Shown here piece by piece: positions 7,721 to 51,511 of a DNA stretch of 64,000 nucleotides (positions are counted from its first letter, which is position 1; the number at the start of each line of letters is the position of its first letter). Location: IMG/VR virus record IMGVR_UViG_3300021171_000007, positions 15,612 through 79,611 of that record, one strand, 5' to 3'. The stretch is from a virus. A program made the position numbers and the translations under genes. The notes under the pieces are model-generated. The model worked only from the letters and a program-made list of their open reading frames with translations. It was not told the DNA's origin and made no database searches.

Positions 7721-7762
7721 GGGTGGTAAATATGTCTTTTCTGCGGCTTTTACATTAACCCG

Positions 7763-7784
7763 AACATTAAATTTTCGTAATGTT
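7763..7784. promoter_or_regulatory. Palindromic operator AACATTA-N8-TAATGTT
   Basis: Perfect 7-bp arms; one-mismatch copies at 13332-13353 and 51411-51432. Confidence 0.5.
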
Positions 7785-7797
7785 TACACTGTCCCCG

Positions 7798-7826
7798 TAG
7801 ACTTCACAACCATTTTGTGCTATAGT
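7798..7826 (+). promoter_or_regulatory. Sigma70-type promoter for nusG-like gene
   Basis: TAGACT-17 nt (ending TGTGC)-TATAGT. Confidence 0.6.
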
Positions 7827-7859
7827 GTTTAGTAAGAAAAGCAAGTTTTGGAGGGCTCA

Positions 7860-8387
7860 ATGCAAGATCTATTTGCCACACAAACACAAAACGATTTCAA
7901 GTGGGTAGTGGCAGTCTTTGCAAATACTGGCGCAACAGAAGCCATTCGAAAAGCTAACGATGTACCATTGAAAACATTTTATCCAATACGATTTAATCAA
8001 AAAGGACTTCCAGTCCCTTTGTGGCGCCACTACTTATTCATTGAATTTCGCGACACGTTAACAGCTCAAGTATGTCGGAGCACTAAAAAATTCATTAAAG
8101 TAATTACTATGCGTGATGAAGAAGGAATAGAATATCCAGTAATGGTACGTAAAAACGCTATTAATGAACATCTAGGATTATTACTATCTGGTAGATTTAA
8201 TAGTAGATCAACAGTTAGACGTTATTACGGAAAAGGATCAATAGTTAGAGTATTGGAAGGTAATTTTATTGATAAGAAAGTACGATTGGAAACAGATGTA
8301 CCTCCAAGTATGCCTGGTAATAAGAAAGTACAAATTGACATAGGTGGATTCAAAGCAAGCATCGAGATTTGGAAGTTAGCACTATGA
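7860..8387 (+). CDS. NusG/RfaH-family transcription elongation factor
   Basis: NGN-like PLWRHYLFIEF and KOW-like GSIVRVLEGNF; start moved to ATG 7860 after GGAGG. Confidence 0.8.
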   Translation: MQDLFATQTQNDFKWVVAVFANTGATEAIRKANDVPLKTFYPIRFNQKGLPVPLWRHYLFIEFRDTLTAQVCRSTKKFIKVITMRDEEGIEYPVMVRKNAINEHLGLLLSGRFNSRSTVRRYYGKGSIVRVLEGNFIDKKVRLETDVPPSMPGNKKVQIDIGGFKASIEIWKLAL

Positions 8388-8553
8388 CAAATGAAGACGA
8401 AGAGGATCACTACAATGATTATGATGAAGGATATGAACCTCCATTTAGACATCCATGGAGAGAAATAATTACATTTATATTATTTGTCAGTATCATAATA
8501 GCAGGACTATGGTGGTTAACTTGGAAGATATATGACTGGATATGAGGTAGCAA

Positions 8554-8997
8554 ATGTGCATGGATTGGGAAGAATGGGAGAAGAATCGCTTCTTCATTTT
8601 AATGGGAAAAACACCAGTTCCATCTAATATGCAAGGATGGTCTGCATGGTTTGAAAAAGCCTATGGCACTAATGAAACTGTGGTAGCCTTTACCAAAACA
8701 GATCTAGTTGAAGTAAGCACTGTTTTTCTAGGAATTAATCATAACTTTAATTTTGGGCCTGATAGAGGCGCACCAGTATTATTTGAGACAATGGCATTTC
8801 ATAAGCTAGAAATGCCAAAAATAATTCTAGATCACGAAATAGATTGGGATGGCCAAGAAACCATGCGCTGCTGTACATGGGAAGAAGCTGAGTTACAACA
8901 TAAGATAATGGTAGCAGAAGTAATCAGTAAAGAATATCTGGGAACTCCAGAACAACTTAAGGCTATGGTAGAAGCAATCTTCAAGGAGCAGAAATGA
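8554..8997 (+). CDS. Hypothetical phage protein
   Basis: VSTVFLGINH...PVLFETM motif; SD present. Confidence 0.7.
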   Translation: MCMDWEEWEKNRFFILMGKTPVPSNMQGWSAWFEKAYGTNETVVAFTKTDLVEVSTVFLGINHNFNFGPDRGAPVLFETMAFHKLEMPKIILDHEIDWDGQETMRCCTWEEAELQHKIMVAEVISKEYLGTPEQLKAMVEAIFKEQK

Positions 8998-9224
8998 CAC
9001 AGTTCGGAGCAACAGGTGACTATCCACACGGCAAAATGAACGTAGAAGATGAGGGAGGAATCATATTAGGAATTGCTCATGATAAAGGAAATGTTATTAT
9101 TAATTTTGGTAAGCCATGTGCTTGGATAGGAATGCCACCGGAAGAAGCATTTGGGCTTGCTAGATTGATAGCAGAACATGCCCATAAAGCTATGAGAGAT
9201 ATAACGGAAAGTAACAATGGATGA
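8994..9224 (+). CDS. Hypothetical protein
   Basis: ATGA-coupled ORF with AGGAG SD. Confidence 0.65.
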   Translation: MTQFGATGDYPHGKMNVEDEGGIILGIAHDKGNVIINFGKPCAWIGMPPEEAFGLARLIAEHAHKAMRDITESNNG

Positions 9225-9453
9225 GACAGTAATAGCATGTATGAGGGTTTCTACAAAAGGCCCTCATACTGATAGTATCATCTCCAGTTGCAACAAATGC
9301 CTCCATCCTATATGGATTGCCAAAAGCACTCCAAATATTGATGGAGCGCGCTTTCTGTGCATTCAATGCGTTCCATGGAACGAAGTAGATGACATAGCAC
9401 CGCCGACGCTTGATCAAATGTCTGACGTTCTGAACTCCAAAAATAGAAGGTAG
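9217..9453 (+). CDS. Small Zn-ribbon protein
   Basis: CNKC...CIQC. Confidence 0.6.
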   Translation: MDETVIACMRVSTKGPHTDSIISSCNKCLHPIWIAKSTPNIDGARFLCIQCVPWNEVDDIAPPTLDQMSDVLNSKNRR

Positions 9454-9455
9454 CA

Positions 9456-9956
9456 ATGAGACTCAAAGATATCACTAGTGAAGGAGATGTCCGCGAATGG
9501 CTTCAAGAATGGATAGATGAATGTCAAGGGAGGTTAAAATTAGAATGGATTGAACCATCGATATACGGTAGCACTGTTGGCACTCCAGATTGCAAAGTCT
9601 CAAAGTCCGGAGTGCAATGGACTATTGGTGTAGAACTCAAATACCTTTTAACAACCAAAAAAGGAATCAAATGGGAGGTGCGCCCAGCACAACGGCGCTA
9701 TCATCACATGCACGCTAAGAGCGGTGGCAGGAGCGCACTAATGGCATATATCGCTGCCAACTCAGTTCTTGGATTAGTTCGTGGCGATCATATTCCGCTA
9801 CGAGACTATGCCAAAGATCCACAGAGCGGCATCCATGATGGTAAAGTTAAAATGTGGGATCTCAGTTATTTTAGCGTAGATACTGATCTTAATACAATAT
9901 TGAATTTGGAAAGAGCCTTGTTTGGAGAACTCTTTTGGGAGAAGCATCATGCGTAA
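9456..9956 (+). CDS. PD-(D/E)xK nuclease (VRR-NUC/resolvase-like)
   Basis: GTPDC...VELK...VRPAQRRYH. Confidence 0.7.
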   Translation: MRLKDITSEGDVREWLQEWIDECQGRLKLEWIEPSIYGSTVGTPDCKVSKSGVQWTIGVELKYLLTTKKGIKWEVRPAQRRYHHMHAKSGGRSALMAYIAANSVLGLVRGDHIPLRDYAKDPQSGIHDGKVKMWDLSYFSVDTDLNTILNLERALFGELFWEKHHA

Positions 9957-10088
9957 AATTGATCCTCTCTTTGTGTTAGCCATAATGTTTATGATTGCTT
10001 ATGGTGGACAAATTATCATCAACCTGCTAGGATTAAAATAATGGTAAAGATGGTACCACCTCAATATAAAAAAGGAGGATCACACGCT

Positions 10089-10283
10089 ATGCCAAGAGAG
10101 GACATTGCTCATCACTTTGTTGGACAAAAAGTCCAGAAACTAGATGGATATAAATACCCAGGTATCATTGTCTCTGTATTCAAAACTACGGAAGGAAAAG
10201 TCAGATATGTCGTTGAAGCTGATCATACTGATTTTCGTGGTATGCTTCATATTTTCTCTGATGCGCAGCTTGAGGAACGGTGA
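10089..10283 (+). CDS. DfrB (R67 DHFR)-like SH3-fold protein
   Basis: GQKVQKLDGYKYPGIIVSVF...YVVEADH...GMLHIFSDAQLE aligns by eye with the R67 core; AGGAGG SD before ATG 10089. Confidence 0.55.
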   Translation: MPREDIAHHFVGQKVQKLDGYKYPGIIVSVFKTTEGKVRYVVEADHTDFRGMLHIFSDAQLEER

Positions 10284-10691
10284 ATGAGGTGCCAAAACTG
10301 CCACGGTAACGGACACGCTTGGAATATGTTAACCCAAGAATATCTCCTTTGTATGGAATGTCATGGCAGCGGCATAACATCATGTTGCGAAGGGAACCCA
10401 AATATGACTGAAGATAAAAATCATCCATTCGTATCAACACCAAATAATGGACCATGCTCCAGCTGCGGAAAATTACGTAGTGATTCAATTCATCGTAGAA
10501 TGTTTGAATGTGATGCAGAAGTTTATACGTGCCCATATTGTATGAAAGCTGTTGTGGTATATGTAGAATTAGATGGTAGTGGAGTCATTTCACACGAGAG
10601 CTATGATTTAATTGCTAATTGGGTATATCATTCCAAATGCTGGGATGAACAAATGCGTAAATTTCCGCCAGGAGAGCCAAATGCAAAATGA
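10284..10691 (+). CDS. Multi-Zn-finger protein
   Basis: CQNCHGNG, CMECHGSG, CSSC and CPYC motifs. Confidence 0.65.
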   Translation: MRCQNCHGNGHAWNMLTQEYLLCMECHGSGITSCCEGNPNMTEDKNHPFVSTPNNGPCSSCGKLRSDSIHRRMFECDAEVYTCPYCMKAVVVYVELDGSGVISHESYDLIANWVYHSKCWDEQMRKFPPGEPNAK

Positions 10692-11004
10692 TCCACTTAA
10701 AGAAATCCAAGAGTTCAATAGAAAGCGTAATGAGCTATTTCGCAACCCAACATTGGAGGCGGCAACTGCACACCTAAAAGAAATGGGTATTACTGGATTT
10801 GAAAGAGAAGATGTGCCATTAGCAACAGTTCATAAAGCACGCCTACAATGGCTAGAAGCTACAAATCAAATGATTACAGAGTCCATCGCATGGCTAAAAG
10901 AACATGGCTACGAGACAACTTTTAAAGGAGCGCCACCACTCACGCCAGAGCAACGTGACTCAGACCGTATTGAGATCGGAAAGAAACCATTAGGAGAAGA
11001 ATGA
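10681..11004 (+). CDS. Hypothetical protein
   Basis: ATG 10681 after AGGAG. Confidence 0.65.
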   Translation: MQNDPLKEIQEFNRKRNELFRNPTLEAATAHLKEMGITGFEREDVPLATVHKARLQWLEATNQMITESIAWLKEHGYETTFKGAPPLTPEQRDSDRIEIGKKPLGEE

Positions 11005-11237
11005 TGTTGGAAAAAGAATTAAAAGAGTCAGATGAAGTGCTCTTCAAAATTGTAGCTGATAATCTCGAAGCTTCCATAGAAAATGAATATAATATGGATA
11101 GCTACACAGATGAAGAACTTGCTGGCGATCTATTGGCATATGCAGAAGATTGCTCAGAATATAGTATTGAATATCTAACAGCAGCAGTTCACAAATGGAG
11201 AAAGAAAAATGGGCGAAGCCAAAATAAAACGCCTTAA
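11001..11237 (+). CDS. Small acidic protein
   Basis: Coupled ORF, D/E-rich. Confidence 0.6.
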   Translation: MMLEKELKESDEVLFKIVADNLEASIENEYNMDSYTDEELAGDLLAYAEDCSEYSIEYLTAAVHKWRKKNGRSQNKTP

Positions 11238-11622
11238 AATAAAGGCCAGAAATATTCTAAATACGGAGTTCCAGACTACTAGACTCAGTAGTGGCTGTGA
11301 CTGCTTAAACTGCGGCATAGAAATTGATGCTGCTACCAGTGTTGGCCACAAAAACCTGCCACAAGAAGGTGCTATTGCCATCTGCATGATATGCTCTCAT
11401 ATTATGGCATACGACGAGAAAATTCATCTGCGAGAGATGACAGACGAAGAATGTCTGACAATTGCTGGTGATCCAGAAATTCTCTTTCTTATCAACGGCC
11501 TAGGCAGCGCCAAGAAACACTGGGAAGAAATACATGGTAAAGACACGTGGGGCGCCAAAGCGCGGGAAAGGCTCGCTAGGCTCAAAGCTCAACAAAACGA
11601 AGAGAAAGCTAAGGAAGAATGA
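11209..11622 (+). CDS. Zn-ribbon protein
   Basis: CLNC...CMIC. Confidence 0.6.
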   Translation: MGEAKIKRLKIKARNILNTEFQTTRLSSGCDCLNCGIEIDAATSVGHKNLPQEGAIAICMICSHIMAYDEKIHLREMTDEECLTIAGDPEILFLINGLGSAKKHWEEIHGKDTWGAKARERLARLKAQQNEEKAKEE

Positions 11623-11810
11623 ATATGAGTGCGCTGCCTGTCATGAGGTCTATGCCAAAGGAGTGTCTGATGAAGAGGCTTTGGCGGAAGCTGCGACGCT
11701 TTTTCCTACTGTTCCAATTGAGGATACTTCAATAGTCTGCGATGACTGCTTTCAGAAAATGATGGCAGACGTCAAAGCCCGCCCATGGGCATACCCACCC
11801 CTACCAGGAG

Positions 11811-12413
11811 ATGATGATGGTAAGTGATTTGTTTGACGAACACGGAAAACGAAAGATGCGCCCAGGTAGTGGAGTGATACCGAAGCCATTTGACAAAGTA
11901 GAACTTGAAATTGTGCGTGCTGATATGGCTGAATTAATAGCCAGAGAAAAAGAAAATGGCGATTGGGAAAAATGGCTTGAATCGCAGCGCCCAATTTCGC
12001 AACTGCGGTCGCTTGACCGCGATTTACTTACAATCTCAGTTACACTGACAGTTGATGGCCACGTCATTCCTACGCCTGTTGGTCTTCCAGACGCAATCAT
12101 GGAAGAGATAAATGACAGATACCGCAACCGTTCAACGCACCGTCTGGAGCGCCAAGAAATGCCCAGCCGCATCGTAGCAATGGAAGCTGATCGAGAAAGA
12201 TTGGAGAGAATTCGATTTTACACAGGTCAAATTACTGCTGAGATCTTCGCTCATTATGTAGGCCGCCCACCACAGAATGATGATCTTATGCGCGCCAATT
12301 GTAATCTAGCCGGCCAATTAGGACATTCCGCCTGCGGTTGGTGCGGAAGCTGCCAACGGCCCCGATTCATATGCAACCACCACGTGATATCACCCAATGG
12401 ACCAATGAGATGA
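11811..12413 (+). CDS. Hypothetical protein with C-terminal Cys/His cluster
   Basis: ANC...GHSACGWCGSCQRPRFIC. Confidence 0.65.
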   Translation: MMMVSDLFDEHGKRKMRPGSGVIPKPFDKVELEIVRADMAELIAREKENGDWEKWLESQRPISQLRSLDRDLLTISVTLTVDGHVIPTPVGLPDAIMEEINDRYRNRSTHRLERQEMPSRIVAMEADRERLERIRFYTGQITAEIFAHYVGRPPQNDDLMRANCNLAGQLGHSACGWCGSCQRPRFICNHHVISPNGPMR

Positions 12414-12730
12414 AAACCAAAAAATGGAAGAAGCATATGCTTCAACTCATGAGGATCGCCCTGATTCCAGGTCCACCAGGCCCTAGAGGCGCCACTGGGC
12501 CCCAAGGTCCACAAGGTGTTCCAGGTCAGCAAGGCCCCATCGATTCATCAAACTATGACCTTGCTGAGCAGATCGCTTGGTTGAAGAATGAACTAGCACA
12601 GTTGAAAATTGAAATTGACAGCTCAAGGAGGATTAGTGATGAAAATCAAAAACTATCAACCTCAAAACGAGGAAGAAGCCGTAGGATGGTTGATGGAAGA
12701 GTGCTGCGAGGTGGTAATATCAATCGGTAG
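12410..12730 (+). CDS. Short collagen-repeat/coiled-coil protein
   Basis: GPPGPRGATGPQGPQGVPGQQGP followed by heptads; ATGA overlap at 12410. Confidence 0.55.
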   Translation: MKTKKWKKHMLQLMRIALIPGPPGPRGATGPQGPQGVPGQQGPIDSSNYDLAEQIAWLKNELAQLKIEIDSSRRISDENQKLSTSKRGRSRRMVDGRVLRGGNINR

Positions 12731-12857
12731 GTGCATGAGGTTTGGAATTGAAACTGTCCACGAGGGCCGTACTAATCGCCAGATCCTACTCGATGAGCTT
12801 GATGATTTATCTAAAGCCTGGGCTGAATCACAACTATGGCTAAGGAAAGTCAAATGA
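12639..12857 (+). CDS. MazG-like all-alpha NTP pyrophosphatase
   Basis: LMEECCEV...RFG...LLDELDDL pattern; AGGAGG SD. Confidence 0.55.
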   Translation: MKIKNYQPQNEEEAVGWLMEECCEVVISIGRCMRFGIETVHEGRTNRQILLDELDDLSKAWAESQLWLRKVK

Positions 12858-13024
12858 TTAGATGCGCCCAGTGCAAGAAAGAGTTTGCTCCAAAATTTCC
12901 ACAACATAGATTTTGTTCAAAAGACTGTGGCACAAGATTCCATAGATACGCACGAATGATGAAACGCGATCGTAAATGGATTTTGATTAATGGGCCTAGA
13001 TCTGTTCAATCTGATTCTACGTGA
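12854..13024 (+). CDS. Small treble-clef Zn-finger protein
   Basis: CAQC...FCSKDC. Confidence 0.6.
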   Translation: MIRCAQCKKEFAPKFPQHRFCSKDCGTRFHRYARMMKRDRKWILINGPRSVQSDST

Positions 13025-13474
13025 ACGGATTGTAACTCATTATGATTCCACAGTGGGGGGTTGTAGAAATCAAGATGAGTGAAAATTTGATGCTAGTCCG
13101 GTGACGGTCACCACCAGTGGGTCGCGTGAAACAGGTAAAACAGAAGATCGACCCCGACCTTCGGCTGGCCAGAAAATCGACAGAGAAGGGCAAGAGATAG
13201 GGATAGGGTCTAGCGTTTTAGGCTATGTGCATAGCGGACGCATGTCCGAGGCCGCCTGTCAGCCTCCTAATGCGATTTAAACGCATATCGCGGACTAGGG
13301 CATAACGGACGCGAGAAACGAAACATTCGCGAACATTACAAAATGTTAATGTGTTCGCAATGTTTTGTAATGTTGCAAACGTCGTTTACGTGTATTGTTC
13401 CCTTTGCACCGCGCTTTTGCGGTGCGGGCGGACGCTACGTGCGCCGCTCTTGTCTAGCAAAAAGGACTAAACAA

Positions 13475-13972
13475 ATGTCGAACGAAAAGCCCGCAAAGGT
13501 TGCGGACGTTCTCGCGCAAGTTAGCGCGGATAATGCGGAAGTGCGCGCTAGCGTGCTTGCGCTAGTGCAGGCTATGCCGCAAGCGATTGCGGACGCGGTT
13601 AAGCAGGCGTTGCCTGTCCCGACCGTGCGCGCGCCGCGAACCGCTCGCGTTGCGGTGCAGATGTCTCCTGCGGACGCGGACGCCGCAATGTGCGGTTTTA
13701 ACAAGAAAGGTCCGCGCCGCGATTTCTTTCTTGCTGTGCGCGAATTGCCGAGCGGCACATATTCGCTTGCGGAAACGTTTCCGGGCGTTTCGCTTGCGGA
13801 GGCGGGCGTTGTTTATCGTCGCCTTAGCGGACAACGCACGGGCGGACGCGTTACGGAAAGCTTTTTCGAGCGGTTAGGCTTCGAAATCGCAATCGTTAAC
13901 GAAGTGCGCGGGAAGGCCGAAATCGGCATTACGCGTTACACGGACGCGAACAAGACGGGCGAAACCGCCTAA
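13475..13972 (+). CDS. Orphan protein in a GC-rich, YCA/TGR-free island (candidate immediate-early gene)
   Basis: AAGGA SD, ATG 13475, own terminator; no TCA, CCA, TGA or TGG anywhere in the gene. Confidence 0.8.
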   Translation: MSNEKPAKVADVLAQVSADNAEVRASVLALVQAMPQAIADAVKQALPVPTVRAPRTARVAVQMSPADADAAMCGFNKKGPRRDFFLAVRELPSGTYSLAETFPGVSLAEAGVVYRRLSGQRTGGRVTESFFERLGFEIAIVNEVRGKAEIGITRYTDANKTGETA

Positions 13973-13981
13973 CGCGCAATC

Positions 13982-14010
13982 GAGCGGACGCGACAAGCGT
14001 CCGCTCTTTT
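13982..14010 (+). terminator. Intrinsic terminator
   Basis: GAGCGGACGC-gacaa-GCGTCCGCTC-TTTT. Confidence 0.8.
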
Positions 14011-14135
14011 CTTGCCCTCTAACTTCAGGACCAACAAAACCATGTTTATCATCATCGCACATCGTGGCCTCAACTGGCGCTGCTTCCGTGGCCCCAAGCG
14101 GACGTACTTCCTCTGGATCCACGAAGGAAATTGAA

Positions 14136-14267
14136 ATGGCCAAGATCATTCCCGTCATTGGGCTGCTGATTGCCCTCGCGTTTGGCCTCATAGCTGTCGG
14201 CCACCACAACTACGTCACCCAGGTCAACGACTATCTGGACCATGGCACTCCTGCCACAAAACCATAA
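14136..14267 (+). CDS. Small membrane protein
   Basis: AAGGA SD; MAKIIPVIGLLIALAFGLIAVG hydrophobic segment. Confidence 0.6.
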   Translation: MAKIIPVIGLLIALAFGLIAVGHHNYVTQVNDYLDHGTPATKP

Positions 14268-14269
14268 TC

Positions 14270-14293
14270 AATGGGGCGCAAGCCCCATTTTTT
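14270..14293 (+). terminator. Intrinsic terminator
   Basis: AATGGGGC-gcaa-GCCCCATT-TTTT. Confidence 0.85.
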
Positions 14294-14612
14294 CATGTCC
14301 AGTTCGTTCATCCCATGAATTGAATCAATCTCATGAATTGAGTTTGGTGATGATGATATCATGACATTCATCCCATGAATTGAATATAGATCATAATTCA
14401 TTCATCATGGTCATTTTCATTCATTGGCTGGTAACTTCATGAGTGCCATTGGCTGATGGATGCGCACCAACGTGGATTGATGATGGTGACTTCATAGCAA
14501 TCATTGATTGATGGTTGCGCCCAGATCATGGGATGATACCAATCAACTACCATTACCACTCACCATTGACTGAATCATTACTGATGACTTACCATTGATT
14601 CATGGAGCGCCC
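14293..14612. repeat. Non-coding patch saturated with TCA/CCA/TGA/TGG
   Basis: 12 and 14 such triplets in the two 60-nt lines counted; 19-nt direct repeat at 14307-25 and 14367-85. Confidence 0.75.
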
Positions 14613-14614
14613 AG

Positions 14615-14870
14615 GGACTGTTACCAGTCCTGTTAGTCCTGTTATTTTTCATATAAAATAGGACAAAGAAAGTGCAACGATTACAAGGACTTACGGCGAC
14701 CAGTCCTGTTAGTCCTGTTTGTCCTATTGGTATTTCCATATGCGAGGCGTCGTTTTGCTACCTCTTCCCGACCACTGACCGGACAGCCTCCATGGCCGGC
14801 CTAACCCCTTGTAATCGTTAAGGAATTTCTGTCCTCCTTGTGGTTTTCAGAAAACAGGACAGGACAGAAC
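14615..14870. repeat. Iteron-like repeats, candidate replication origin
   Basis: Tandem GTCCTGTT at 14627-43 and 14703-19, inverted AACAGGACAGGAC at 14853-65, and a 13-bp inverted repeat AACGATTACAAGG/CCTTGTAATCGTT; lies just downstream of the helicase. Confidence 0.6.
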
Positions 14871-14903
14871 CACAGATCATTAATGTAGATTGTTACCATT
14901 GAC

Positions 14904-16388
14904 TCAAGCATCTGGCTTATACAAACTGAAATCAAAATCAGTATTGCCGCGTAAAACTGACCATTGACCATCTTCTGTTGACCATTGAACCTTACCACCC
15001 AACTTACTTTCCAATGATCTTCTGACATCGGGACATAATGGAACTTCATATCCATTGCGTCTATTATCACGACTGTCTCTAATCTTGATATTCTCAACTA
15101 CCATATCAGGTATCAAATCTGCTAATTGGCGACCAAATTTTCTTTCTGATAACTGGTGGCGCTTCCCAGCTGGAGAATGATTATAGTCATTCAATAGCAG
15201 AGCTTTGATTACTTGCACTTTGCCATCCATCAATTCACCATAAGGCATTTCTTTGGAGTCTACAATACTATATAGCCATTCTTGGACTCCATTCATACTC
15301 TGTTGTTTCTGGAATATTAATTCTTCAGTAACAGGAGCTATTCTGAGATCAATATCATATTTATGATTGAGGAAATAATGCATGAGCGCGGCATTGCCGC
15401 CATTTTTAAACCAATTGTCAAGTTGGGCAAAGTATTTAGTATCACGTCTCTTATCTTCTGATGCATGAAGTGCGAATATGCGCCTAGCTTTGAATCCAGC
15501 GCTGACTAGCCATTCTGGATTACCAGTTATAAATAAATGAAGATGATTTGGAACTTCGTAAACTGGCACATATTTATCATTAATAGGTAATGTGGGACCA
15601 GATATGATATCTTTTAATAATGATTCATCTTTCTTACTACCAGCCCAAACTGCCTCTTCCAAATGGAGTAATATACAGTTCTTCAATTGCCCGTTATGAT
15701 CGCCAAATATGTATGCTGGATTTGATGTTTTAAATGTATATGGGCGCATCAATTCAGATAATTTCTCCACAAAGAATGATTTGCCTACACCCTCATCTCC
15801 ACGTATTACTACGGCTATGGCTGGTTTCAAATGAGGCTCTTGGAACATTTGGGAAATGAGTGCAATTAGATAATTGAAATTGTCTACATTTCCACAACAA
15901 ATGATATTATTCATTAAATCTAAGAATGGTATGACATCGCCCTCTTTTGATTCAATTCTATATCCTTTCCATAAATTATATTTATCATTTCTATTACCTA
16001 AATATGATGGATCGAAATCAAATCCGTATTTATAATGGCGACGTTCTGAACTGGCGAACCATACATCCGTAATTGGCACATATTTTGGATCACCACCTTC
16101 GGTTGGCATTATCATAATACGTCTATCTGAATAACCAGCAACCAAATCTTTCTTATCCATTATTTCTAATGTGCCATCTGGATTCTCTCTGACTACTTTG
16201 AATCGCCCATTTAAATATATTGTAAAATGATCTTCATTTAATTCTAATATGGCATCTTTCTTTGGATCGCCAGTTCTGGTATATTCTCGTCTGGGCGCAC
16301 CATGTTGATTTTGTTGATATCTTGGATCCTCAGTAAGTTTCTTAATACGTTCCAAATCTGGATATAGGTCGTCATCATCGTCAGCCAT
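14904..16388 (-). CDS. SF3 (D5/NrS-1-type, DUF5906-like) helicase without a primase domain
   Basis: GDEGVGKS Walker A, LHLEEA Walker B, FITGN motif C, ARRIF arginine finger. Confidence 0.85.
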   Translation of the reverse strand: MADDDDDLYPDLERIKKLTEDPRYQQNQHGAPRREYTRTGDPKKDAILELNEDHFTIYLNGRFKVVRENPDGTLEIMDKKDLVAGYSDRRIMIMPTEGGDPKYVPITDVWFASSERRHYKYGFDFDPSYLGNRNDKYNLWKGYRIESKEGDVIPFLDLMNNIICCGNVDNFNYLIALISQMFQEPHLKPAIAVVIRGDEGVGKSFFVEKLSELMRPYTFKTSNPAYIFGDHNGQLKNCILLHLEEAVWAGSKKDESLLKDIISGPTLPINDKYVPVYEVPNHLHLFITGNPEWLVSAGFKARRIFALHASEDKRRDTKYFAQLDNWFKNGGNAALMHYFLNHKYDIDLRIAPVTEELIFQKQQSMNGVQEWLYSIVDSKEMPYGELMDGKVQVIKALLLNDYNHSPAGKRHQLSERKFGRQLADLIPDMVVENIKIRDSRDNRRNGYEVPLCPDVRRSLESKLGGKVQWSTEDGQWSVLRGNTDFDFSLYKPDA

Positions 16389-16412
16389 AGTGCGCCCGTC
16401 CCAAATGTTATA

Positions 16413-16607
16413 TTATGGAAGTAACGATTTGAATTCTACTTCAAAATCCTCCTGTGATATTTTACTGTTAGTTCTATGTATGAAATATTCATACATAACA
16501 TCCTTATCTATGACAATACTTCCGTCATCATTTTTCTTTTGAAATGGTAATTCACCTTCATTTAGGACATCGAACCAAAACTGTTCTACTTCTGATAAAT
16601 GACGCAT
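16413..16607 (-). CDS. Stand-alone paralogue of the helicase C-terminal domain
   Basis: VEQFWFDVLNEGELPF...ISQEDFEVEFKSLLP versus VQEWLYSIVDSKEMPY...LSERKFGRQLADLIP. Confidence 0.55.
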   Translation of the reverse strand: MRHLSEVEQFWFDVLNEGELPFQKKNDDGSIVIDKDVMYEYFIHRTNSKISQEDFEVEFKSLLP

Positions 16608-16622
16608 TGCTACCTCCCATTA

Positions 16623-16811
16623 TCATGCCGCGAATAGATCACGCTTTTTGGGCTTCTCAGCCTCTATTTTGGCTTTCTTATTCTTCCAATAGTGGCGCCC
16701 ACGACACAGATCTGAGCAGAACTTCTGCATGGGTTGAACTTTAGCGAATTCTTTTTCGCACTCAACGCATTTAACGATGAGTTTACTTAGGTCGATTTCT
16801 GGCATCATCAT
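16623..16811 (-). CDS. Treble-clef Zn-finger protein ending RDLFAA
   Basis: CVEC...FCSDLC; AGGAG SD. Confidence 0.7.
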   Translation of the reverse strand: MMMPEIDLSKLIVKCVECEKEFAKVQPMQKFCSDLCRGRHYWKNKKAKIEAEKPKKRDLFAA

Positions 16812-16834
16812 CTCCTGCTACCGAACGAACGATA

Positions 16835-16863
16835 AGAATAGCACGCAAACGCGCGTTTGTAAA
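16835..16863 (-). promoter_or_regulatory. Sigma70-type promoter for helicase operon
   Basis: TTTACA-17 nt (ending TGC)-TATTCT on the minus strand. Confidence 0.65.
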
Positions 16864-16893
16864 GCAAAATCATTCTACTGATCAATTTTGTAC

Positions 16894-16922
16894 TTTACAC
16901 GGCGCTCGATTTGTGCTACACT
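16894..16922 (+). promoter_or_regulatory. Sigma70-type promoter for terS operon
   Basis: TTTACA-17 nt (ending TGTGC)-TACACT; ATG at 16928 suggests a leaderless mRNA. Confidence 0.65.
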
Positions 16923-16927
16923 TGATC

Positions 16928-17221
16928 ATGCCTGAAGATTCACCTGAAACTGCCAGACAGCGCGCCACAAGGATCTGGCGGAATGCTTGGATTCAAGGAC
17001 AATCAGAACTTCAAAATCAGGAACAACCTATAGCCACAATCCAAGAACAGGAACGCTTACTCAATCAGGAACGGACTAAATTGATAGCTGCTGTTAATAA
17101 AATATTTGAAGAACAAAAGCATACATTCAATTTGGCATATTATAAGTTGGTAATCAGTAGACGGAGACGTAGGTTACTGGAAGAAAAACTGAGGCGGTTG
17201 GAGTCACAGCAACATGACTGA
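16928..17221 (+). CDS. Coiled-coil protein
   Basis: Q/E/R-rich ORF overlapping the terS start. Confidence 0.6.
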   Translation: MPEDSPETARQRATRIWRNAWIQGQSELQNQEQPIATIQEQERLLNQERTKLIAAVNKIFEEQKHTFNLAYYKLVISRRRRRLLEEKLRRLESQQHD

Positions 17222-17858
17222 TCCAGTACACAATATCGACCCTGGCCCCACTGTTATGTGGGAAGAGGATTATGAGCGCCTCAAAAAGCAACAGCGATTG
17301 GATGCTGAGATTGAGCGCGTCAGGAAGGCCAAGGAAGATGAGATCAATCGTGAGCGCTTCAAAGAGAATCAAAAGATCAAAGATAAAATTGAATACACAG
17401 AAGAATTGGCAACAGAGATTTGTGAGAGGATCAGTGCTGGTGAGCTATTGATCAACGTGTGCAAAGATAGTCATATGCCAACTGTGCGCCGCTGTTCAGC
17501 ATGGCTGAAGTCAGAAGCTGACTTCCAAGCACTGTATAATATGGCCATTGCAGACCGATTGACTATATTTGAGGAAGAAGTGATCTCAATTGCTGATGAT
17601 GCAACAAGAGATATGAGGGAAATTATTAAGAGTGGTAAAACCATTAAAGTCCAAGATGCTGAAGTCATTGCGCGAGCCAAACTCAGAGTTGAGGTGCGCT
17701 TCAGGCATTTGAAGGCTGGACGTCCTGGTAAATGGGGTGACAGCACTACTCTCATCACTAAATCAGAAGATGAAAATATTGCTGAGATGCCATTGTCTGA
17801 GCTGGAAAAGAAGATCGCTGAGTTGGAACATAAAGATCGGGTGGTGAAAGCAGTTTGA
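17214..17858 (+). CDS. terS: Terminase small subunit (Sf6 gp1-like) with N-terminal extension
   Basis: YTEELATEICERISAGE...MPT...WL...IADD...ARAKLRVEVR...PGKWGD. Confidence 0.8.
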   Translation: MTDPVHNIDPGPTVMWEEDYERLKKQQRLDAEIERVRKAKEDEINRERFKENQKIKDKIEYTEELATEICERISAGELLINVCKDSHMPTVRRCSAWLKSEADFQALYNMAIADRLTIFEEEVISIADDATRDMREIIKSGKTIKVQDAEVIARAKLRVEVRFRHLKAGRPGKWGDSTTLITKSEDENIAEMPLSELEKKIAELEHKDRVVKAV

Positions 17859-17867
17859 TTCATCATT

Positions 17868-17893
17868 CGTTACGCAGTTACGCAGTTACGTAG
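17868..17893. repeat. Tandem GTTACG(C/T)A x3
   Basis: 8-nt period; AGTTACGTAG is the exact inverse of 19154-19163. Confidence 0.7.
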
Positions 17894-17976
17894 CCTATCC
17901 CGCTCGTTTATTTCTGACACAATAGGATCAATCATTGGCTGATTGATCCATGTCATAGTCATCATTATTATGTGAC

Positions 17977-18005
17977 TTGCATCATCAATAGAACTGTGCT
18001 ATAAT
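17977..18005 (+). promoter_or_regulatory. Sigma70-type promoter
   Basis: TTGCAT-17 nt (ending TGTGC)-TATAAT. Confidence 0.7.
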
Positions 18006-18119
18006 AGGCTCTAGGCGGTTAGATCCACTGCCTAGGGCTATTTGACATTGTGAATACTGGACACTGTGACATGTAACTCTGTTCCGTGTAGATTAGCCAT
18101 CTCACAGAGGAGAATAATC

Positions 18120-19151
18120 ATGTCATTGCTAATGTCACTAATACAAAACGGCTCAAATCAAGAAGATCCCAGGACAAATCTTCTTGAGTACACTGCTGGT
18201 ACCATCGCTAAGCATATTGATGCGCCAGCGCACTACCTGGTTGGATTAGCTCTATGGGCGCTACATACCCATGTGTATTCCACCTATAGCAAGACTCCAA
18301 GATTAGCTATCTTGAGCCCAGTTCCTAACTGTGGCAAGAGTACAGTTTTGGAGATACTAGCTGCAATGGCTTGGAATCCTAAACGAGTAATAGACCCAAC
18401 TGAAGCCGCTCTATTTCGTTTGGCAAGCAATCATACAATGCTGCTAGATGAAGTAGATAACATGTCAATATCAAGAGGCATGAAGTCTGTCTTAAATGAA
18501 GGAGACAGATTGGGTGGTAGTGTTATAAGAACTGGAAAGGACGGTGAAGTTATATCCTATCCAGTTTTTGCTCCTCTTGCACTTGCTGGTATTGGTAGGT
18601 TGCCAGCAACTCTTATGACTCGGTCAATAGTTATAAGACTCCATCGCTCAGATAAAGCAATGGATAGATTCTCAGCAAGAGAGCAGCACTTTGCACCACA
18701 TTTCTATAATTGGGGTGATCAGGTAGTTCTTAATTCTGATCCACAAATGCCGCCTCAGTTAGTAGGTCGTGACGCAGATAAATGGAGATCGCTCGTAGCT
18801 ATTGGAGACTCGTTTGGTCGAGGCGAGATAGCGAGAGAGGTGGCGCTCAAGTTCGTAACTGAGAGCGTTAATCCAGATGTCAAGGAGCTAATACTGCGTG
18901 ATACACAGAGAGTGTTCAATAGAGCTAAAGTCACTAAGATCTCTGTGAAGAGAATGTACGAGAAGCTTATTGAGGACAAAGAAGGTGAACACGAAGTAGA
19001 TTATGACGGCCAAAAAATAACAAAAAGAAAAGTTGGAGACACATTACGTGATTTCCAAATATACAGTCGTATCGAAAGGCCAGAAAAAGGCGAGCCAGTT
19101 AGGTATTGGCTCAGAGACGATTTTGAAGAAATGTGGAAAAGGTATGCCTAG
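18120..19151 (+). CDS. DUF3631-type P-loop ATPase/helicase-like replication protein
   Basis: PRLAILSPVPNCGKST, TEAALFR, LLDEVD, LALAGIG and TRSIVIRL; GAGGAG SD. Confidence 0.75.
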   Translation: MSLLMSLIQNGSNQEDPRTNLLEYTAGTIAKHIDAPAHYLVGLALWALHTHVYSTYSKTPRLAILSPVPNCGKSTVLEILAAMAWNPKRVIDPTEAALFRLASNHTMLLDEVDNMSISRGMKSVLNEGDRLGGSVIRTGKDGEVISYPVFAPLALAGIGRLPATLMTRSIVIRLHRSDKAMDRFSAREQHFAPHFYNWGDQVVLNSDPQMPPQLVGRDADKWRSLVAIGDSFGRGEIAREVALKFVTESVNPDVKELILRDTQRVFNRAKVTKISVKRMYEKLIEDKEGEHEVDYDGQKITKRKVGDTLRDFQIYSRIERPEKGEPVRYWLRDDFEEMWKRYA

Positions 19152-19153
19152 CA

Positions 19154-19180
19154 CTACGTAACTACGTTACAGCGTTACAG
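19154..19180. repeat. GTAAC/GTTAC repeats downstream of DUF3631 gene
   Basis: CTACGTAACTACGTTACAGCGTTACAG. Confidence 0.6.
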
Positions 19181-19366
19181 TGAGTCCCAATAAAGATGGG
19201 TGCGCCTCATTTTATCGAGTTATTTCAGCTTATGACAATCAATCGCCAATCAGTGAATGAATAATGGCTGAATTATGTAGTGAATTCAATATTTGAAGTT
19301 TCATGGGTCAGTGATTATCATGGTATTTTCTCTGTATGTTCCCTTTTTACCCCCTATTTGTTCCCC

Positions 19367-19395
19367 TTGCTTTCCTTCCGCGAACGTGCTACGGT
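19367..19395 (+). promoter_or_regulatory. Sigma70-type promoter of the ribozyme-containing early operon
   Basis: TTGCTT-17 nt (ending TGC)-TACGGT. Confidence 0.7.
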
Positions 19396-19399
19396 TCTT

Positions 19400-19640: not shown

Positions 19641-19650
19641 AAGGAAAAGT

Positions 19651-20659: not shown

Positions 20660-20678
20660 AGTAACAGGAGTTGTACTA

Positions 20679-39391: not shown

Positions 39392-39392
39392 C

Positions 39393-39947
39393 ATGAACGA
39401 CGATATTCGTGATCTTTTCGGATTTGTTGCGCCATCTCAAGAGCAGTTGACGTCCATATCGAAATGGGCGAGTAAGGCTTTAGAGCTACAAGCTGAGATT
39501 GAGCAAGTTGAGGCGCACCTAAAAGAATTGAATAGAGAATTAGCCCAAATCGAAGAAGTAGATTTGCCCAGAGCAATGATGTCTGCTGGCTCGGAAGAAT
39601 TTACTATGACAGGAGGCGGCAAGATTTCCATAGACGATGTTATTCAGGGCAGTCTAGCTAAAGGTGAAGAAAAGCGGGAATATGCGATCCAGTGGGTGGC
39701 AGAAAATGACGGCCAAGAAATTATAAAAAGACATTTCGAGATAGATTACACCAGAGGCCAGCATTCCTATGCGATGGCATTACGTAAACTGCTCGAAGAA
39801 AATCAGGTACATTTTGACGAGTTTGAGAGCATTCACACTAGCACCTTCAAAGCATTTCTGCGTGAGAAGTTAAGAAAGAATATCATGCCACCCTTCGATA
39901 AGATGGGTTTTCGCTTTTTTAAAAAAGCTATTATCAAACCAAAGTAA
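39393..39947 (+). CDS. Replication-module protein of unknown function
   Basis: Coiled coil followed by LPRAM...IHTSTFKAFLRE. Confidence 0.65.
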   Translation: MNDDIRDLFGFVAPSQEQLTSISKWASKALELQAEIEQVEAHLKELNRELAQIEEVDLPRAMMSAGSEEFTMTGGGKISIDDVIQGSLAKGEEKREYAIQWVAENDGQEIIKRHFEIDYTRGQHSYAMALRKLLEENQVHFDEFESIHTSTFKAFLREKLRKNIMPPFDKMGFRFFKKAIIKPK

Positions 39948-42310: not shown

Positions 42311-42757
42311 ATGATAGTTGTTGTTGATCTCGATCATACTGTGTCTGACGCGTTTTGGCGCGACAGTATGATAGGTGTCAATCCTTGGGATGAATATTAC
42401 GAAAACGCTAAGTACGATAAGCCATTCAAGAACGTAGCTAATTTAATCAATTCTCTTTCTGCTATGAACTACGAGATTATAGCATTTACTGGAAGACCAG
42501 AAAAATTTAGAACTCTAACAGTCAGTTGGTTAGTTCGTAATAGAATTGACATAGATACTATCTTGATGCGCCCAGACGAGGATTATACCAAAAATAGCGA
42601 GTTGAAACTTAGATTAATCAAAGAACATTTTAAGGATAGATTTTATCAAATACATTTTATTATTGACGATAATGAGGAATCAGTATTAGAATTTTACAAA
42701 TTGGGGATACCTACACTTCAAATAAGAAACGTAAGACCAAAGGATCTCTTCGCGTGA
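42311..42757 (+). CDS. HAD phosphatase (PNKP phosphatase-like)
   Basis: DLDHT, FTGR, LMRP and IIDD. Confidence 0.8.
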   Translation: MIVVVDLDHTVSDAFWRDSMIGVNPWDEYYENAKYDKPFKNVANLINSLSAMNYEIIAFTGRPEKFRTLTVSWLVRNRIDIDTILMRPDEDYTKNSELKLRLIKEHFKDRFYQIHFIIDDNEESVLEFYKLGIPTLQIRNVRPKDLFA

Positions 42758-43047
42758 CAGAACTATCAGAAACAGAACAAGCCATAGGACTTATGAATGA
42801 ATTAATAAAGACTATGAAGGAGCGTGAAGCAGAGTATGGTAGTAATGAACACAAAACTGCCCAGATATTGATGATATTATTTCCAGAAGGAATACATGTC
42901 AACTCTTTTGAAGCAGCAGTCAGAATTAAATTCTTGATCTATATAATAGATAAACTCAGTAGATATTCAAAAAAAGGGAATAAAGATAGTTTGATAGATT
43001 TGGCAGGATATGCGTTGCGTTTGGCAGTATTCGATCCAAAGGAGTAG
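42754..43047 (+). CDS. DUF6378/Nmad-like all-alpha domain protein
   Basis: REAEYG...KLSRY...DSLIDLAGYA. Confidence 0.65.
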   Translation: MTELSETEQAIGLMNELIKTMKEREAEYGSNEHKTAQILMILFPEGIHVNSFEAAVRIKFLIYIIDKLSRYSKKGNKDSLIDLAGYALRLAVFDPKE

Positions 43048-48983: not shown

Positions 48984-49035
48984 TAATTACATGCTTGATC
49001 AGCTAAATAAAAAGCAAGTTTATTTCTTTTTTCGC

Positions 49036-49064
49036 TTGCAATGCGAGCGGAAATGTGCTACTCT
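49036..49064 (+). promoter_or_regulatory. Sigma70-type promoter
   Basis: TTGCAA-17 nt (ending TGTGC)-TACTCT. Confidence 0.7.
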
Positions 49065-49104
49065 GTACCAGGCGCTAAATCCAGCGCCAGCAAGGAGAGC
49101 ACGT

Positions 49105-49929: not shown

Positions 49930-49935
49930 ATAAAT

Positions 49936-49965
49936 AGGGCGCTCTCAGGAGCGCCCTTTCTCTTT
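49936..49965 (+). terminator. Intrinsic terminator
   Basis: AGGGCGCTC-tcag-GAGCGCCCT-TTCTCTTT. Confidence 0.75.
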
Positions 49966-49979
49966 GTGGGTATCGCGAT

Positions 49980-50297
49980 ATGATGAAACATTCGGATCGA
50001 ATCATTGAAATGATAGATCAAGTTTCAGTGCCAAAGAAAAAAGTAAAGATTGGGTATTCTCCGCTAGAACAGAGAATTTTGGATAACATTCCAATAGACG
50101 GAAGATATATCAATACCCTAGAACTGGCGAATAGAGCTTACCCTGCTGGTGAGGCGCCACGAAACGCGCGTCAATCAGTTCTTCATGCTGCCAACTCTCT
50201 TATCGCCAAGAGCGATGAGAATGAAGAAGAATGGGAAATCTTTAAGTCAAATAGTAGCCCAGTTTACTTCTGGCGAAAACCACGAGGGTCGGAATAA
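49980..50297 (+). CDS. Possible winged-helix protein
   Basis: YSPLEQRILD...INTLELA. Confidence 0.5.
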   Translation: MMKHSDRIIEMIDQVSVPKKKVKIGYSPLEQRILDNIPIDGRYINTLELANRAYPAGEAPRNARQSVLHAANSLIAKSDENEEEWEIFKSNSSPVYFWRKPRGSE

Positions 50298-50355
50298 CAA
50301 TTACCTGAGAAGCTCTGTGGAAATCCGCGGTCGCCGGAGCCGAAGTGGCCTATTC

Positions 50356-50476
50356 TTTACGCCTATTTTACGCTTTATTTACGCCCTCTTTACGCTTCAA
50401 GGGGCTGTTAGCTATGCGTCTAGCCTCCGTTTTTTCTTTACGCATGTTATACATTTTGTCGTAAAAAAGCCGTAAA
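50356..50476. repeat. 11-bp-phased TTTACGC repeats
   Basis: Copies at 50356, 50367, 50378, 50389 and 50437; inverted CGTAAA at 50460 and 50471. Confidence 0.75.
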
Positions 50477-50496
50477 GATGGAGTACAATCAAAACC

Positions 50497-50679
50497 ATGC
50501 AAAGGACGATAAAGTGTCTTGAATGCGACAAGCCATTAAAAACTTGGCGTAAAGATCATAAGTTTTGTTCAACTAACTGTCGTGTTAAAAATTGGCAACA
50601 TAAAAAGCTAAATGATACAGATCAATTGGACTTGTTTAAACAGGAGGTAGCAAATGAAACAACCAAAGATAAGAACTGA
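50497..50679 (+). CDS. Treble-clef Zn finger with QLDLF motif
   Basis: CLEC...FCSTNC...DQLDLF. Confidence 0.65.
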   Translation: MQRTIKCLECDKPLKTWRKDHKFCSTNCRVKNWQHKKLNDTDQLDLFKQEVANETTKDKN

Positions 50680-50911
50680 AGCAATGCCACAAACTCGTGT
50701 TTGTTGGAATTGTTCTAAGCCAATTGCAATAGACTCGAACTATCAATTTTGTGGAACAATGTGTAAAATTAAATGGGAGGATAAACAGCCATTAGCAAAT
50801 AGAAAAGTATGTTTGAATTGCAGAGAAGAATTTTTTGAATCAAATCTTACTACCAATCTATGTAGCCGTAACTGCAAAATGGAATATTATAAAGCAACAA
50901 TGACTTGGTAG
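50654..50911 (+). CDS. Double treble-clef Zn-finger protein
   Basis: CWNC..FCGTMC and CLNC..LCSRNC. Confidence 0.6.
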   Translation: MKQPKIRTEAMPQTRVCWNCSKPIAIDSNYQFCGTMCKIKWEDKQPLANRKVCLNCREEFFESNLTTNLCSRNCKMEYYKATMTW

Positions 50912-51196
50912 CTAAATCTGATAATCAGGTTCATCAAAACTATCAGGTCCAACAATCTTAAAATCTAAAATCTGTAGCCAAGCCATAAATGTATCGGAGT
51001 TTGGAAGATGATGTTTATTCTCCCAACGATGTATTTCGTTTGTATGTACACCAATTAATATTGCCAATGTTTGTTGAGTCCAACCTTTACGAATACGCGC
51101 CGCTCTTAATTGATGAATTAATTGATCGCTATGTGATGGTTCGTGCCGAGAGTTGATTTCTATCATACGCTCGAACATTGGCAGTTTCCATGACAA
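50912..51196 (-). CDS. XRE-family HTH regulator
   Basis: LRAARIRKGWTQQTLAILIGVHTNEIHRWEN. Confidence 0.8.
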   Translation of the reverse strand: MSWKLPMFERMIEINSRHEPSHSDQLIHQLRAARIRKGWTQQTLAILIGVHTNEIHRWENKHHLPNSDTFMAWLQILDFKIVGPDSFDEPDYQI

Positions 51197-51386
51197 AAGG
51201 TCCCAGCAGATTGTTTCTAGGAATGTTCATTTTAATTCTATCGCTCATTCTGTATAATTTGACAGGTAATGCTTTAGGTTGGGAAGTTCTGTTTATACCA
51301 GGATCTGTGATTATGCTTAATGGACTTTATTTAATTTTCATTAAAGGCGAGTGATTTTCACATAAAATATTTGTACCTAAACCGTC

Positions 51387-51415
51387 TTGCTTTTGTTGCA
51401 TTGCGGTGCTAAGAT
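51387..51415 (+). promoter_or_regulatory. Sigma70-type promoter for PEP-CTERM gene
   Basis: TTGCTT-17 nt (ending TGC)-TAAGAT; overlaps the palindrome at 51411-32. Confidence 0.7.
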
Positions 51416-51511
51416 TAACTTTCCGTAATGTTTCATGAATAATTGGGAGTGCGTGTACAGCTCTCAGTTATGCGGCGTACAGTGCGTCCACCCAGATCTG
51501 GAGAGCAACAA

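Follow-up and report, generated by a model that had tools for sequence, protein, structure and literature searches.

In the genome of an uncultured soil phage (IMG/VR record IMGVR_UViG_3300021171_000007; 79,611 base pairs (bp), judged complete), the four triplets TCA, CCA, TGA and TGG (YCA/TGR) are spaced so evenly that gaps above about 35 bp are nearly absent, except at promoters and a few other sites. Our analysis covers a 64-kb window of this record (bases 15612-79611), and all coordinates are positions in that window. Any of the four triplets is called a word here, and a stretch without any of them a free run or gap. Active exclusion of the word extends over about 60-110 bp at sigma-70-type promoters with an extended -10, which stand before the early and replication operons. 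Operator and iteron repeats, and one small regulator-like gene, are likewise exempt from the rule. The word-free promoter windows are real, selected exemptions from a genome-wide rule, and the observation is statistically strong.

The genome holds 6,089 occurrences of the four triplets at a mean spacing of 13 nucleotides (nt), and about 18% of its G falls within TGR. Gaps of at least 30 nt number 140, against 445±17 expected under an order-2 Markov model, and gaps of at least 40 nt number 22, against 166±10. When all 496 reverse-complement-closed sets of four triplets were compared, the observed/expected ratio of long gaps was 0.095 for YCA/TGR, 0.60 for the next set and 1.14 at the median. 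Shuffling synonymous codons in 97 genes gave 147±7.5 gaps of at least 40 nt where 6 are observed. The index of dispersion of the spacing is 0.45, and the per-nucleotide chance of meeting the next site climbs from 0.06 to 0.2 as a gap grows, the rise setting in beyond 12-20 nt.

All four triplets are needed for this evenness. Every subset is much less even, and the single-strand subsets (YCA or TGR alone) give ratios of 0.63-0.67. TCA is as effective as CCA, flanking bases are irrelevant, and leaving out any triplet or flank class acts like random thinning; no wider motif context was found around the triplets. The pair correlation of sites shows the 3-nt codon period alone, with no period of 10-11 bp or 24 bp. 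Because the union of orientations is needed and shuffles fail to reproduce the spacing, the rule acts on double-stranded DNA irrespective of strand. It is held by selection, at synonymous and non-coding positions alike. An origin as a by-product of coding or codon usage is ruled out by the synonymous and codon shuffles and by non-coding DNA that is equally filled, and an origin as primase recognition sites is ruled out because the evenness belongs to the union of orientations, not to one strand.

The same rule is found in the relatives of the phage. Eight contigs were selected by polymerase identity (84-94%) and twenty by a 56-91% homologue of a 414-amino-acid protein encoded in the window; these sets overlap, several members being other stretches of the same contigs, and together they comprise about 25 distinct contigs. 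Three relatives (G001, G002 and G003) were compared whole or nearly so, plus further loci. YCA/TGR ranks 1/496 in every one of the roughly 25 contigs, with long-gap ratios of 0-0.17 in the polymerase-based set and 0.03-0.21 in the other. The ratios are 0.47-0.88 in outgroups, including 0.67 in Serratia phage MyoSmar, which with the Burkholderia BcepF1 group represents the nearest isolated phages (polymerase identity only about 35%). Among the viral contigs fetched, a close homologue of the 414-amino-acid protein (at least 56% identical) was always accompanied by the rule.

Ten gaps of at least 60 nt occur in the whole 79.6-kb genome, and all of them lie within the window. Six of the ten, plus one run of 42 nt, carry members of a single promoter family, CTTGCTT-N13-RTGCTAnnnT, that is TT(GC--/TACA)-N14-TGC-TAnnnT, with an extended -10. 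The window contains eight instances of the family, seven word-free and one (17977) with words, and the spacer is exactly 17 bp in each. These eight and a further promoter at 7798 are listed below.

16863 down to 16835, minus strand: TTTACA-N14-TGC-TATTCT in a 63-nt free run (16809-16871), facing a minus-strand operon with the DUF5906/VapE-type primase-helicase gene 14904-16388.
16894-16922, plus strand: TTTACA-N14-TGC-TACACT in a 42-nt free run (16883-16924), divergent from the preceding promoter and leading to the small terminase gene 17214-17858.
17977-18005, plus strand: exception promoter TTGCAT-CATCAATAGAACTG-TGC-TATAAT, ahead of the DUF3631 gene 18066-19151.
19367-19395, plus strand: TTGCTT-N14-TGC-TACGGT in a 108-nt free run (19322-19429), heading a long operon of small early genes.
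35139 down to 35111, minus strand: TTGCTT-N14-TGC-TACTCT in an 88-nt free run (35077-35164), predicted to drive gene 34848-35081 and the gene of the 414-amino-acid primase-like protein, 33602-34846.
36209-36237, plus strand: TTGCTT-N14-TGC-TATGTT in a 67-nt free run (36185-36251), heading the replication operon (ligase, ThyX, DnaQ, DnaE, SNF2 helicase).
49036-49064, plus strand: TTGCAA-N14-TGC-TACTCT in a 70-nt free run (49000-49069), directly after the helicase gene.
51387-51415, plus strand: TTGCTT-N14-TGC-TAAGAT followed by a CGTAATGTT box, in a 76-nt free run (51359-51434) before the PEP-CTERM gene 51443-52165.
7798-7826, plus strand: exception promoter TAGACT-TCACAACCATTTTG-TGC-TATAGT, adjoining the free run 7725-7805.

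The original prediction had named eight triplet-free stretches in this DNA, seven of them with a -35/-10 pair. All eight are indeed word-free, and the pair in each of the seven has the 17-bp spacer and the TGC extended -10. The eighth, given as 7728-7803, reaches from 7725 to 7805 at its maximal extent and holds no -35/-10 pair of the family. The -35 boxes had been correctly quoted (TTGCTT, TTGCAA, TTGCAT, TTTACA and TAGACT), and the two promoters described as exceptions do carry YCA in the spacer. At 17977, two TCA sites (TCATCA) stand directly after the -35, identical in G003. At 7798, TCA and CCA lie just after the -35, and both sites are kept in G001, where the CCA reads TCA.

Each of the eight family promoters precedes a run of genes on its own strand. 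In six cases the first gene has its ribosome-binding site and start codon within 20-45 nt of the presumed +1, and a leader of some 200 nt separates the 19367 promoter from gene 19612. At the plus-strand promoter at 16894, an ATG stands only 6 nt past the -10 (16922-16930), and the transcript may be leaderless. The promoter pattern gives 7 matches in G001 versus 1 for the reversed control. A scan with a generic sigma-70 consensus was uninformative, its matches being no more frequent than in shuffled sequence.

The windows exceed what a neutral model predicts. Under the order-2 Markov model, the 29-mer promoter core is word-free with a probability of 0.25, and finding 7/8 free has P=3e-4. Given a free core, the neutral mean run length is 50 nt versus 73 nt observed in this genome (P=1.5e-4). 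In relatives, long free runs stand at the same gene junctions with the same promoter motif, and the spacers have diverged yet stay free; orthologues of the 19367 promoter with diverged spacers, for example, are present in G001, G002 and G003. Strict matches to the promoter across the clade number 35 distinct sequences, 31 of them site-free. The other four have all their sites within positions 5-12 of the 29-mer, at the end of the -35 or shortly after it, and none in the -10.

The extent of the exemption was estimated from 33 distinct site-free clade promoters. The nearest upstream word ends at a median of -60 (quartiles -63 to -52) and the nearest downstream word starts at a median of +13 (quartiles +7 to +25), with a mean run of 77 nt. 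An extent of -60 to +13 is approximately the footprint of the RNA polymerase holoenzyme. Several promoters have words at -6, -3 or +1, or 5-8 bp before the -35. Counted in a fixed window from -60 to +20, words number 8, 7, 0, 3, 3, 2, 0 and 3 per promoter (genome mean 6.0), and the protected zone thus varies among promoters.

Other non-coding DNA follows the rule. In 23 promoter-less non-coding segments of at least 60 nt, some with a G+C content of 32-37%, the longest free run is only 11-35 nt; triplet-free runs are thus commoner at promoters than in other AT-rich intergenic DNA, the comparison by which the original prediction had proposed to be judged. Terminator hairpins do contain words and show no exemption. 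A non-coding block of about 130 nt (7463-7593) is identical in this phage and in G001, while identity in the genes on either side is only 67-93%. On the minus strand it precedes gene 7226-7477, where the late, structural gene direction begins. This is the sole conserved leader-like block compared; words are present in it at regular spacing, and it may be a late promoter, a leader or a structured RNA.

The spelling of the promoters also bears on the rule. TTGNCA cannot be written without a word (TGA, CCA, TGG or TCA), and the family uses TTGC-- or TTTACA as its -35 and never TTGA. Among the site-free clade promoters, TTGC is found in 27/27 and a TGC extended -10 in 31/31, the remaining 4/31 -35 boxes being TTTACA. 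The claim that the boxes avoid TTGACA because of the triplets is borne out to this extent, but it leaves the invariance of TTGC and TGC unexplained: TTGT and TGT are equally site-free and never used, so the C is a consensus base in both. The C of the extended -10 is probably the host's own. The sigma-70 consensus of rhizobia (Sinorhizobium) is CTTGAC-N17-CTATAT (PMC2873474), and that of the phage is g-C-TTGCTT..RTG-CTAYnCT. Shared between them are the C before TTG, the 17-bp spacer and the C before the TA of the -10. The phage promoters differ in the fourth base of the -35 (C, not A), in the change of CA to TT or AA and in the added invariant TG of the extended -10; the departure in the -35 affects the very A with which TGA would arise. 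Host-type promoters under word avoidance would fit this pattern, in a comparison that leans on a tentative host assignment.

That assignment comes from an element on an alphaproteobacterial metagenome-assembled genome contig (L070; CAVPEE010000003.1, locus 8000-21239), with 46-51% G+C beside host-like DNA of 59-65%. It encodes homologues of the small terminase (56%), the 414-amino-acid primase-like protein (54%) and a helicase (26%) of the phage, and no large terminase was found in its metagenome-assembled genome. The element has the look of an integrated satellite or remnant with parts borrowed from the phage lineage. It shows the YCA/TGR rule only in weak form, and the adjoining host-like DNA is not evenly spaced. 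Distant homologues of the 414-amino-acid protein are mainly from Alphaproteobacteria, with a few in Gammaproteobacteria, Planctomycetota and Dehalococcoidia. On these sequence comparisons, the host is probably, and tentatively, an alphaproteobacterium. The gene 51443-52165 (plus strand), which has its own word-free promoter, encodes a protein that ends in a PEP-CTERM sorting motif (Pfam E=1e-7), and a Gram-negative host with exosortase is therefore implied.

Word-free DNA is not confined to the promoter family; the other gaps of at least 60 nt coincide with operator or iteron repeats or with a gene island. The free run beside the 7798 promoter and four further places outside the earlier list are given below.

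7725-7805: free run of 81 nt with the inverted repeat AACATTA..TAATGTT (7763, 7778) and no family promoter inside.
50347-50480: two adjoining free runs of 52 and 83 nt with five direct TTTACGC repeats (50356, 50367, 50378, 50389, 50437) and inverted CGTAAA copies.
17864-17916: free run of 53 nt with three GTTACG(C/T)A repeats (GTTACGCA) at 17869, 17877 and 17885.
14650-14842: three free runs (52, 37 and 49 nt) at GTCCTGT iterons (14627-14712, 14854-14859), beside the primase-helicase gene.
13170-14026, plus strand: island with a 767-nt run of zero words and an adjoining run of 91 nt, a single site in the whole; it spans an upstream region, gene 13475-13972 and the terminator of that gene.

By its repeats, the array at 50347-50480 is a predicted regulator-binding array, not a family promoter; in G001 and G002 a site-free run lies at the matching place with a different sequence. 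The iteron region at 14650-14842 looks like an origin. The island is conserved in relatives, and its upstream region contains TAATGTT/AACATTA boxes, which recur at 7763-7784 and, shortly beyond the end of the free window there, at 51426. Its gene encodes a protein of 165 amino acids with a long N-terminal helix, and the C-terminal half has a weak likeness to OmpR/PhoB winged-helix DNA-binding domains (Z of about 5, many consistent matches). This likeness suggests an early regulator. Beside the island and the iterons lies the opposite extreme, a saturated non-coding tract (14290-14640) with 68 sites in 351 nt, which shares CATTGGCTG with a second dense patch at 17933.

The best reading of these observations, partly supported, is interference between whatever reads the word and DNA-binding proteins. 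The original prediction had attributed this to something on YCA/TGR that interferes with polymerase binding. The windows on which it was built hold up, since they are real, lie at sigma-70-type promoters and other protein-binding DNA and are the size of a footprint; no mark, writer or reader was found.

We tentatively favour, at somewhat less than even confidence, a covalent, point-like mark on each word, which would shield the DNA and be kept off the landing sites of proteins. Each word would carry a small base modification, placed after replication by a writer of 3-bp specificity encoded by phage or host. If dense and evenly spread, such marks would protect the DNA. Sigma, the alpha C-terminal domains and regulators would fail to recognise grooves that carry a mark, and hence the sites of polymerase and regulators would have evolved word-free. 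The promoter would be the closest word-free spelling of the host consensus, with CTTGAC turned into CTTGC-- and TGn into TGC. The places where words are tolerated, from -6 to +1 and in the spacer half next to the -35, would be positions that polymerase does not read as duplex bases.

A point-like mark is favoured because a degenerate specificity of 3 bp is typical of DNA-modifying enzymes (those of phages iggy and CAjan, T-dioxygenases) and because polymerase does not read the stretch of spacer in which sites are retained. It is preferred to a bulky binder because words are tolerated against the -10 and within 5-8 bp of the -35. The exceptions can be seen in two ways. In Dam-type promoters (IS10 pIN, pap), a mark inside the promoter changes the binding of polymerase or regulators, and replication can time them. 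These promoters are the model for viewing the exceptions as switches, which by the original prediction may fire only on unmarked DNA. They differ in having the word inside the promoter as the switch; here the word is excluded from nearly all promoters, the retained sites are in the spacer, not the hexamers, and no methyltransferase was found by the profile search described below. The words of the exception promoters may simply be tolerated in the upstream half of the spacer.

Several results weigh against a covalent mark. Six-frame searches with profiles for N6_N4, Dam and C5 methyltransferases, TGT/DpdA, Tet_JBP and ParB (PF01555, PF02086, PF00145, PF01702, PF12851, PF02195) gave no match at E<=1, and a scan of about 80 open reading frames gave no writer candidate. 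The ThyX/HAD/FAD gene cluster of the phage is also present in outgroups without the rule. The 6-mer palindromes that contain a word are not clearly spared from the general avoidance of such palindromes (observed/expected 0.65-0.84 for the four such palindromes versus 0.63-0.74 for the rest). Modification alone does not predict the spacing rule, as GA/TC is not even (ratio 0.85, longest gap 171 nt) in iggy, the best-documented case of modification directed by a motif, which was used as a positive control for even spacing. Word avoidance does not account for the invariant C in TTGC, nor does a shield readily explain why some tracts are saturated and a whole gene has no words. Finally, the promoters are predicted from sequence, the host assignment is tentative, and the mark itself is proposed for a phage whose DNA is known only as assembled contigs from two soil metagenomes.

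Among the candidates tried for a writer, the ThyX/FAD/HAD cluster is unlikely to cause the rule because of its presence in those outgroups. The 414-amino-acid protein was set aside because its motifs (AFDIDF, GGGFQLIY, DRVMRLPGTxN) resemble those of archaeo-eukaryotic-type primases and it has a weak profile match to the RepB-like primase of MyoSmar (E=0.003); this hallmark of the clade looks like such a primase. The protein (gene 33602-34846, minus strand) is without a sequence match in Pfam or PDB; its homologues at 50-91% identity exceed 200 in number, and many come from contigs of roughly 65-81 kb. Many of the small early open reading frames are without a family match, and none was identified as DNA-binding save for weak helix-turn-helix matches at 35189 and 35735.

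Known modification systems offer partial parallels. In phage iggy, dPreQ0 is placed at GA by the writer DpdA and replaces 16.5% of G, and in CAjan the contexts are GA and GGC; the mark protects against restriction enzymes and Cas9 in vitro (PMC10484667). As in these phages, a word of 2-3 bp would decide the mark here, on about 1 in 6 G. Unlike iggy, the present phage is without DpdA/TGT or 7-deazaguanine genes, and its word is evenly spaced. The text of that study contains neither "promoter" nor "transcription", and hence no word-free promoters are reported for iggy (PMC10484667), where the mark is established and not, as here, proposed. The iggy genome (MN029011) has GA/TC-free stretches of 157-171 nt in genes (42700-42870, 27694-27854 and 39300-39456), far beyond chance, which may be low-complexity coding repeats or modification-free patches. 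Phage T-dioxygenases (5mYOX) oxidise thymine after replication in a short context and prefer NTG or NTC (PMC13229309). NTG overlaps TGR, but the third base (R) matters here, and no Tet_JBP or ParB homologue was found in six frames. A literature search gave nothing relevant on an evenly spaced modification word in phages.

A serious rival, though in our judgement an unlikely one, is a coat: a phage protein, packaged or made very early, that attaches to YCA/TGR without a covalent bond and forms a polymer along the DNA. Its assembly would nucleate on saturated tracts and depend on anchor words no more than 35 bp apart, and free windows of 60-110 bp would break the coat for polymerase and regulators. 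The opened sites would be promoters, operators and the origin, and a word-free gene would stay permanently uncoated. Such a protein accounts better than a mark for the saturated tracts and for footprint-sized windows. The tract at 14290-14640 and the patch at 17933 resemble nucleation centres, gap-filling from about 12-20 bp fits a binder of fixed footprint, and the windows match the whole polymerase footprint, not just the contacted bases. The exempt gene is explained, and no modifying enzyme, of which none was found, is required. The precedent is p6 of the Bacillus phage phi29, an early protein that forms an array along the whole DNA and controls early promoters and the origin. However, p6 reads bendability with a 24-bp period, whereas the rule here is word-based and without periodicity, and no p6-like gene was found. 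A degenerate 3-bp word, read in either orientation, would give a DNA-binding protein very little specificity, the site spacing has no helical period, and no candidate protein was identified. Words at -6, -3, +1 and 5-8 bp from the -35 lie where a bound protein would clash with polymerase. In addition, 6-bp palindromes are strongly avoided genome-wide (G000 and G001; median observed/expected 0.5-0.65), and CTCGAG, CTGCAG and GCATGC have 0 copies each where 9-15 are expected. This avoidance is the classical trace of type II restriction enzymes, and it suggests that the DNA is exposed to them. Slightly less probable than a coat is the reading of the unmarked word as a bar code, by which some machine, needing to meet it at least every 35 bp or so, would tell phage from host DNA. 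The machine may be a phage nuclease or helicase, a host defence disarmed by the phage or a new DNA-tracking protein. Only promoters, operators, origin iterons and one immediate-early regulator gene would be exempt, with the transcription programme written as gaps in the layer.

The remaining explanations are less probable still. One places the writer in the host: a phosphorothioation or methylation system whose restriction arm attacks DNA without nearby marks, so that the phage would offer evenly spaced words outside its control regions. SspABCD, which sets single-strand phosphorothioates at CCA, a subset of YCA, and SspE, which acts on unmarked DNA without needing the motif, provide a precedent. 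The orientation-independent rule at the level of double-stranded DNA and the lack of a writer gene in the searches made are in keeping with it. We nevertheless regard it as improbable, as TCA serves equally well here whereas the Ssp systems known recognise CCA alone, the host-like DNA beside L070 is not evenly spaced, host modification of fast-replicating phage DNA is usually incomplete, and the host itself is assigned only tentatively. It is more doubtful yet that there is no interference at all, the windows being the footprint of conserved promoter, operator or iteron sequences that lack the word, with neutral flanks free of local gap-filling. The promoter core does consist of 15 fixed bases without a word, repeated iterons automatically yield free runs, and some of the -60 to +20 windows carry words (0-8). 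The variable spacers, free in 7/8 cases against the 0.25 expected, speak strongly against this explanation, as do the runs of 73 nt here and 77 nt in the 33 clade promoters where 50 nt would be neutral, spacers that diverge between relatives and are still free, the filling of other non-coding DNA within 35 nt, and the island of 767 nt with zero words. Finally, it is hardly credible that the rule concerns RNA or transcribed DNA, with promoter windows escaping because they are untranscribed. The genome is mostly transcribed and the windows begin upstream of the presumed starts, as this would require. However, YCA and TGR would not both be needed on one strand (0.63-0.67 for single-strand subsets versus 0.095 for the union), and the windows reach about +13. 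Those at 36185 and 49000 lie inside read-through DNA between same-strand genes, words are present between the divergent promoters (16871-16883) and in the probably untranscribed saturated tract, and the island is transcribed yet free.

The phage is present in two soil metagenome runs, in both as contigs. In addition to the genes already named, the window encodes a large terminase, a portal and tail fibres; its DnaE-type polymerase is accompanied by DnaQ, and ligase, ThyX, SNF2 helicase, small terminase and the DUF5906/VapE primase-helicase are encoded as well. Gene 1060-2859 (minus strand), situated in the group of head genes between that of the portal and its neighbours, encodes a 599-amino-acid protein in which an N-terminal NUDIX domain is fused to phrog_6216, a phage family of unknown function. 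A 337-amino-acid early protein (25478-26491, plus strand) belongs to a conserved family of at least 166 members, 44-100% identical among the 120 listed, without a Pfam domain. Its structural model has a predicted local distance difference test (pLDDT) score of 73; the best structural match is the anti-CRISPR AcrVA2, a weak one (Z 6.2, 165 residues aligned), and Foldseek gave no match for the model. No Rfam family was matched at the gathering threshold anywhere in the window.

We know of no phage whose genome is shaped to spread a modification evenly and whose promoters are spelled from an unmarked sub-alphabet. If the words carry a mark, this would be such a case, the whole genome being shaped at synonymous sites for that purpose. 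If there is no mark, a second code in about 80 kb of DNA, shared across a large group of soil phages, calls for another explanation; and if the word serves as a bar code, synonymous sites would encode a second, continuous layer of information. The rule predicts a so far undescribed enzyme or binder whose specificity would be YCA/TGR. Gaps in the rule also provide a way to find promoters, operators and origins in uncultured phages from sequence alone. The finding thereby raises a testable question: whether a dense DNA shield has to leave open the places where the host polymerase lands, and whether the phage times its genes in this way.

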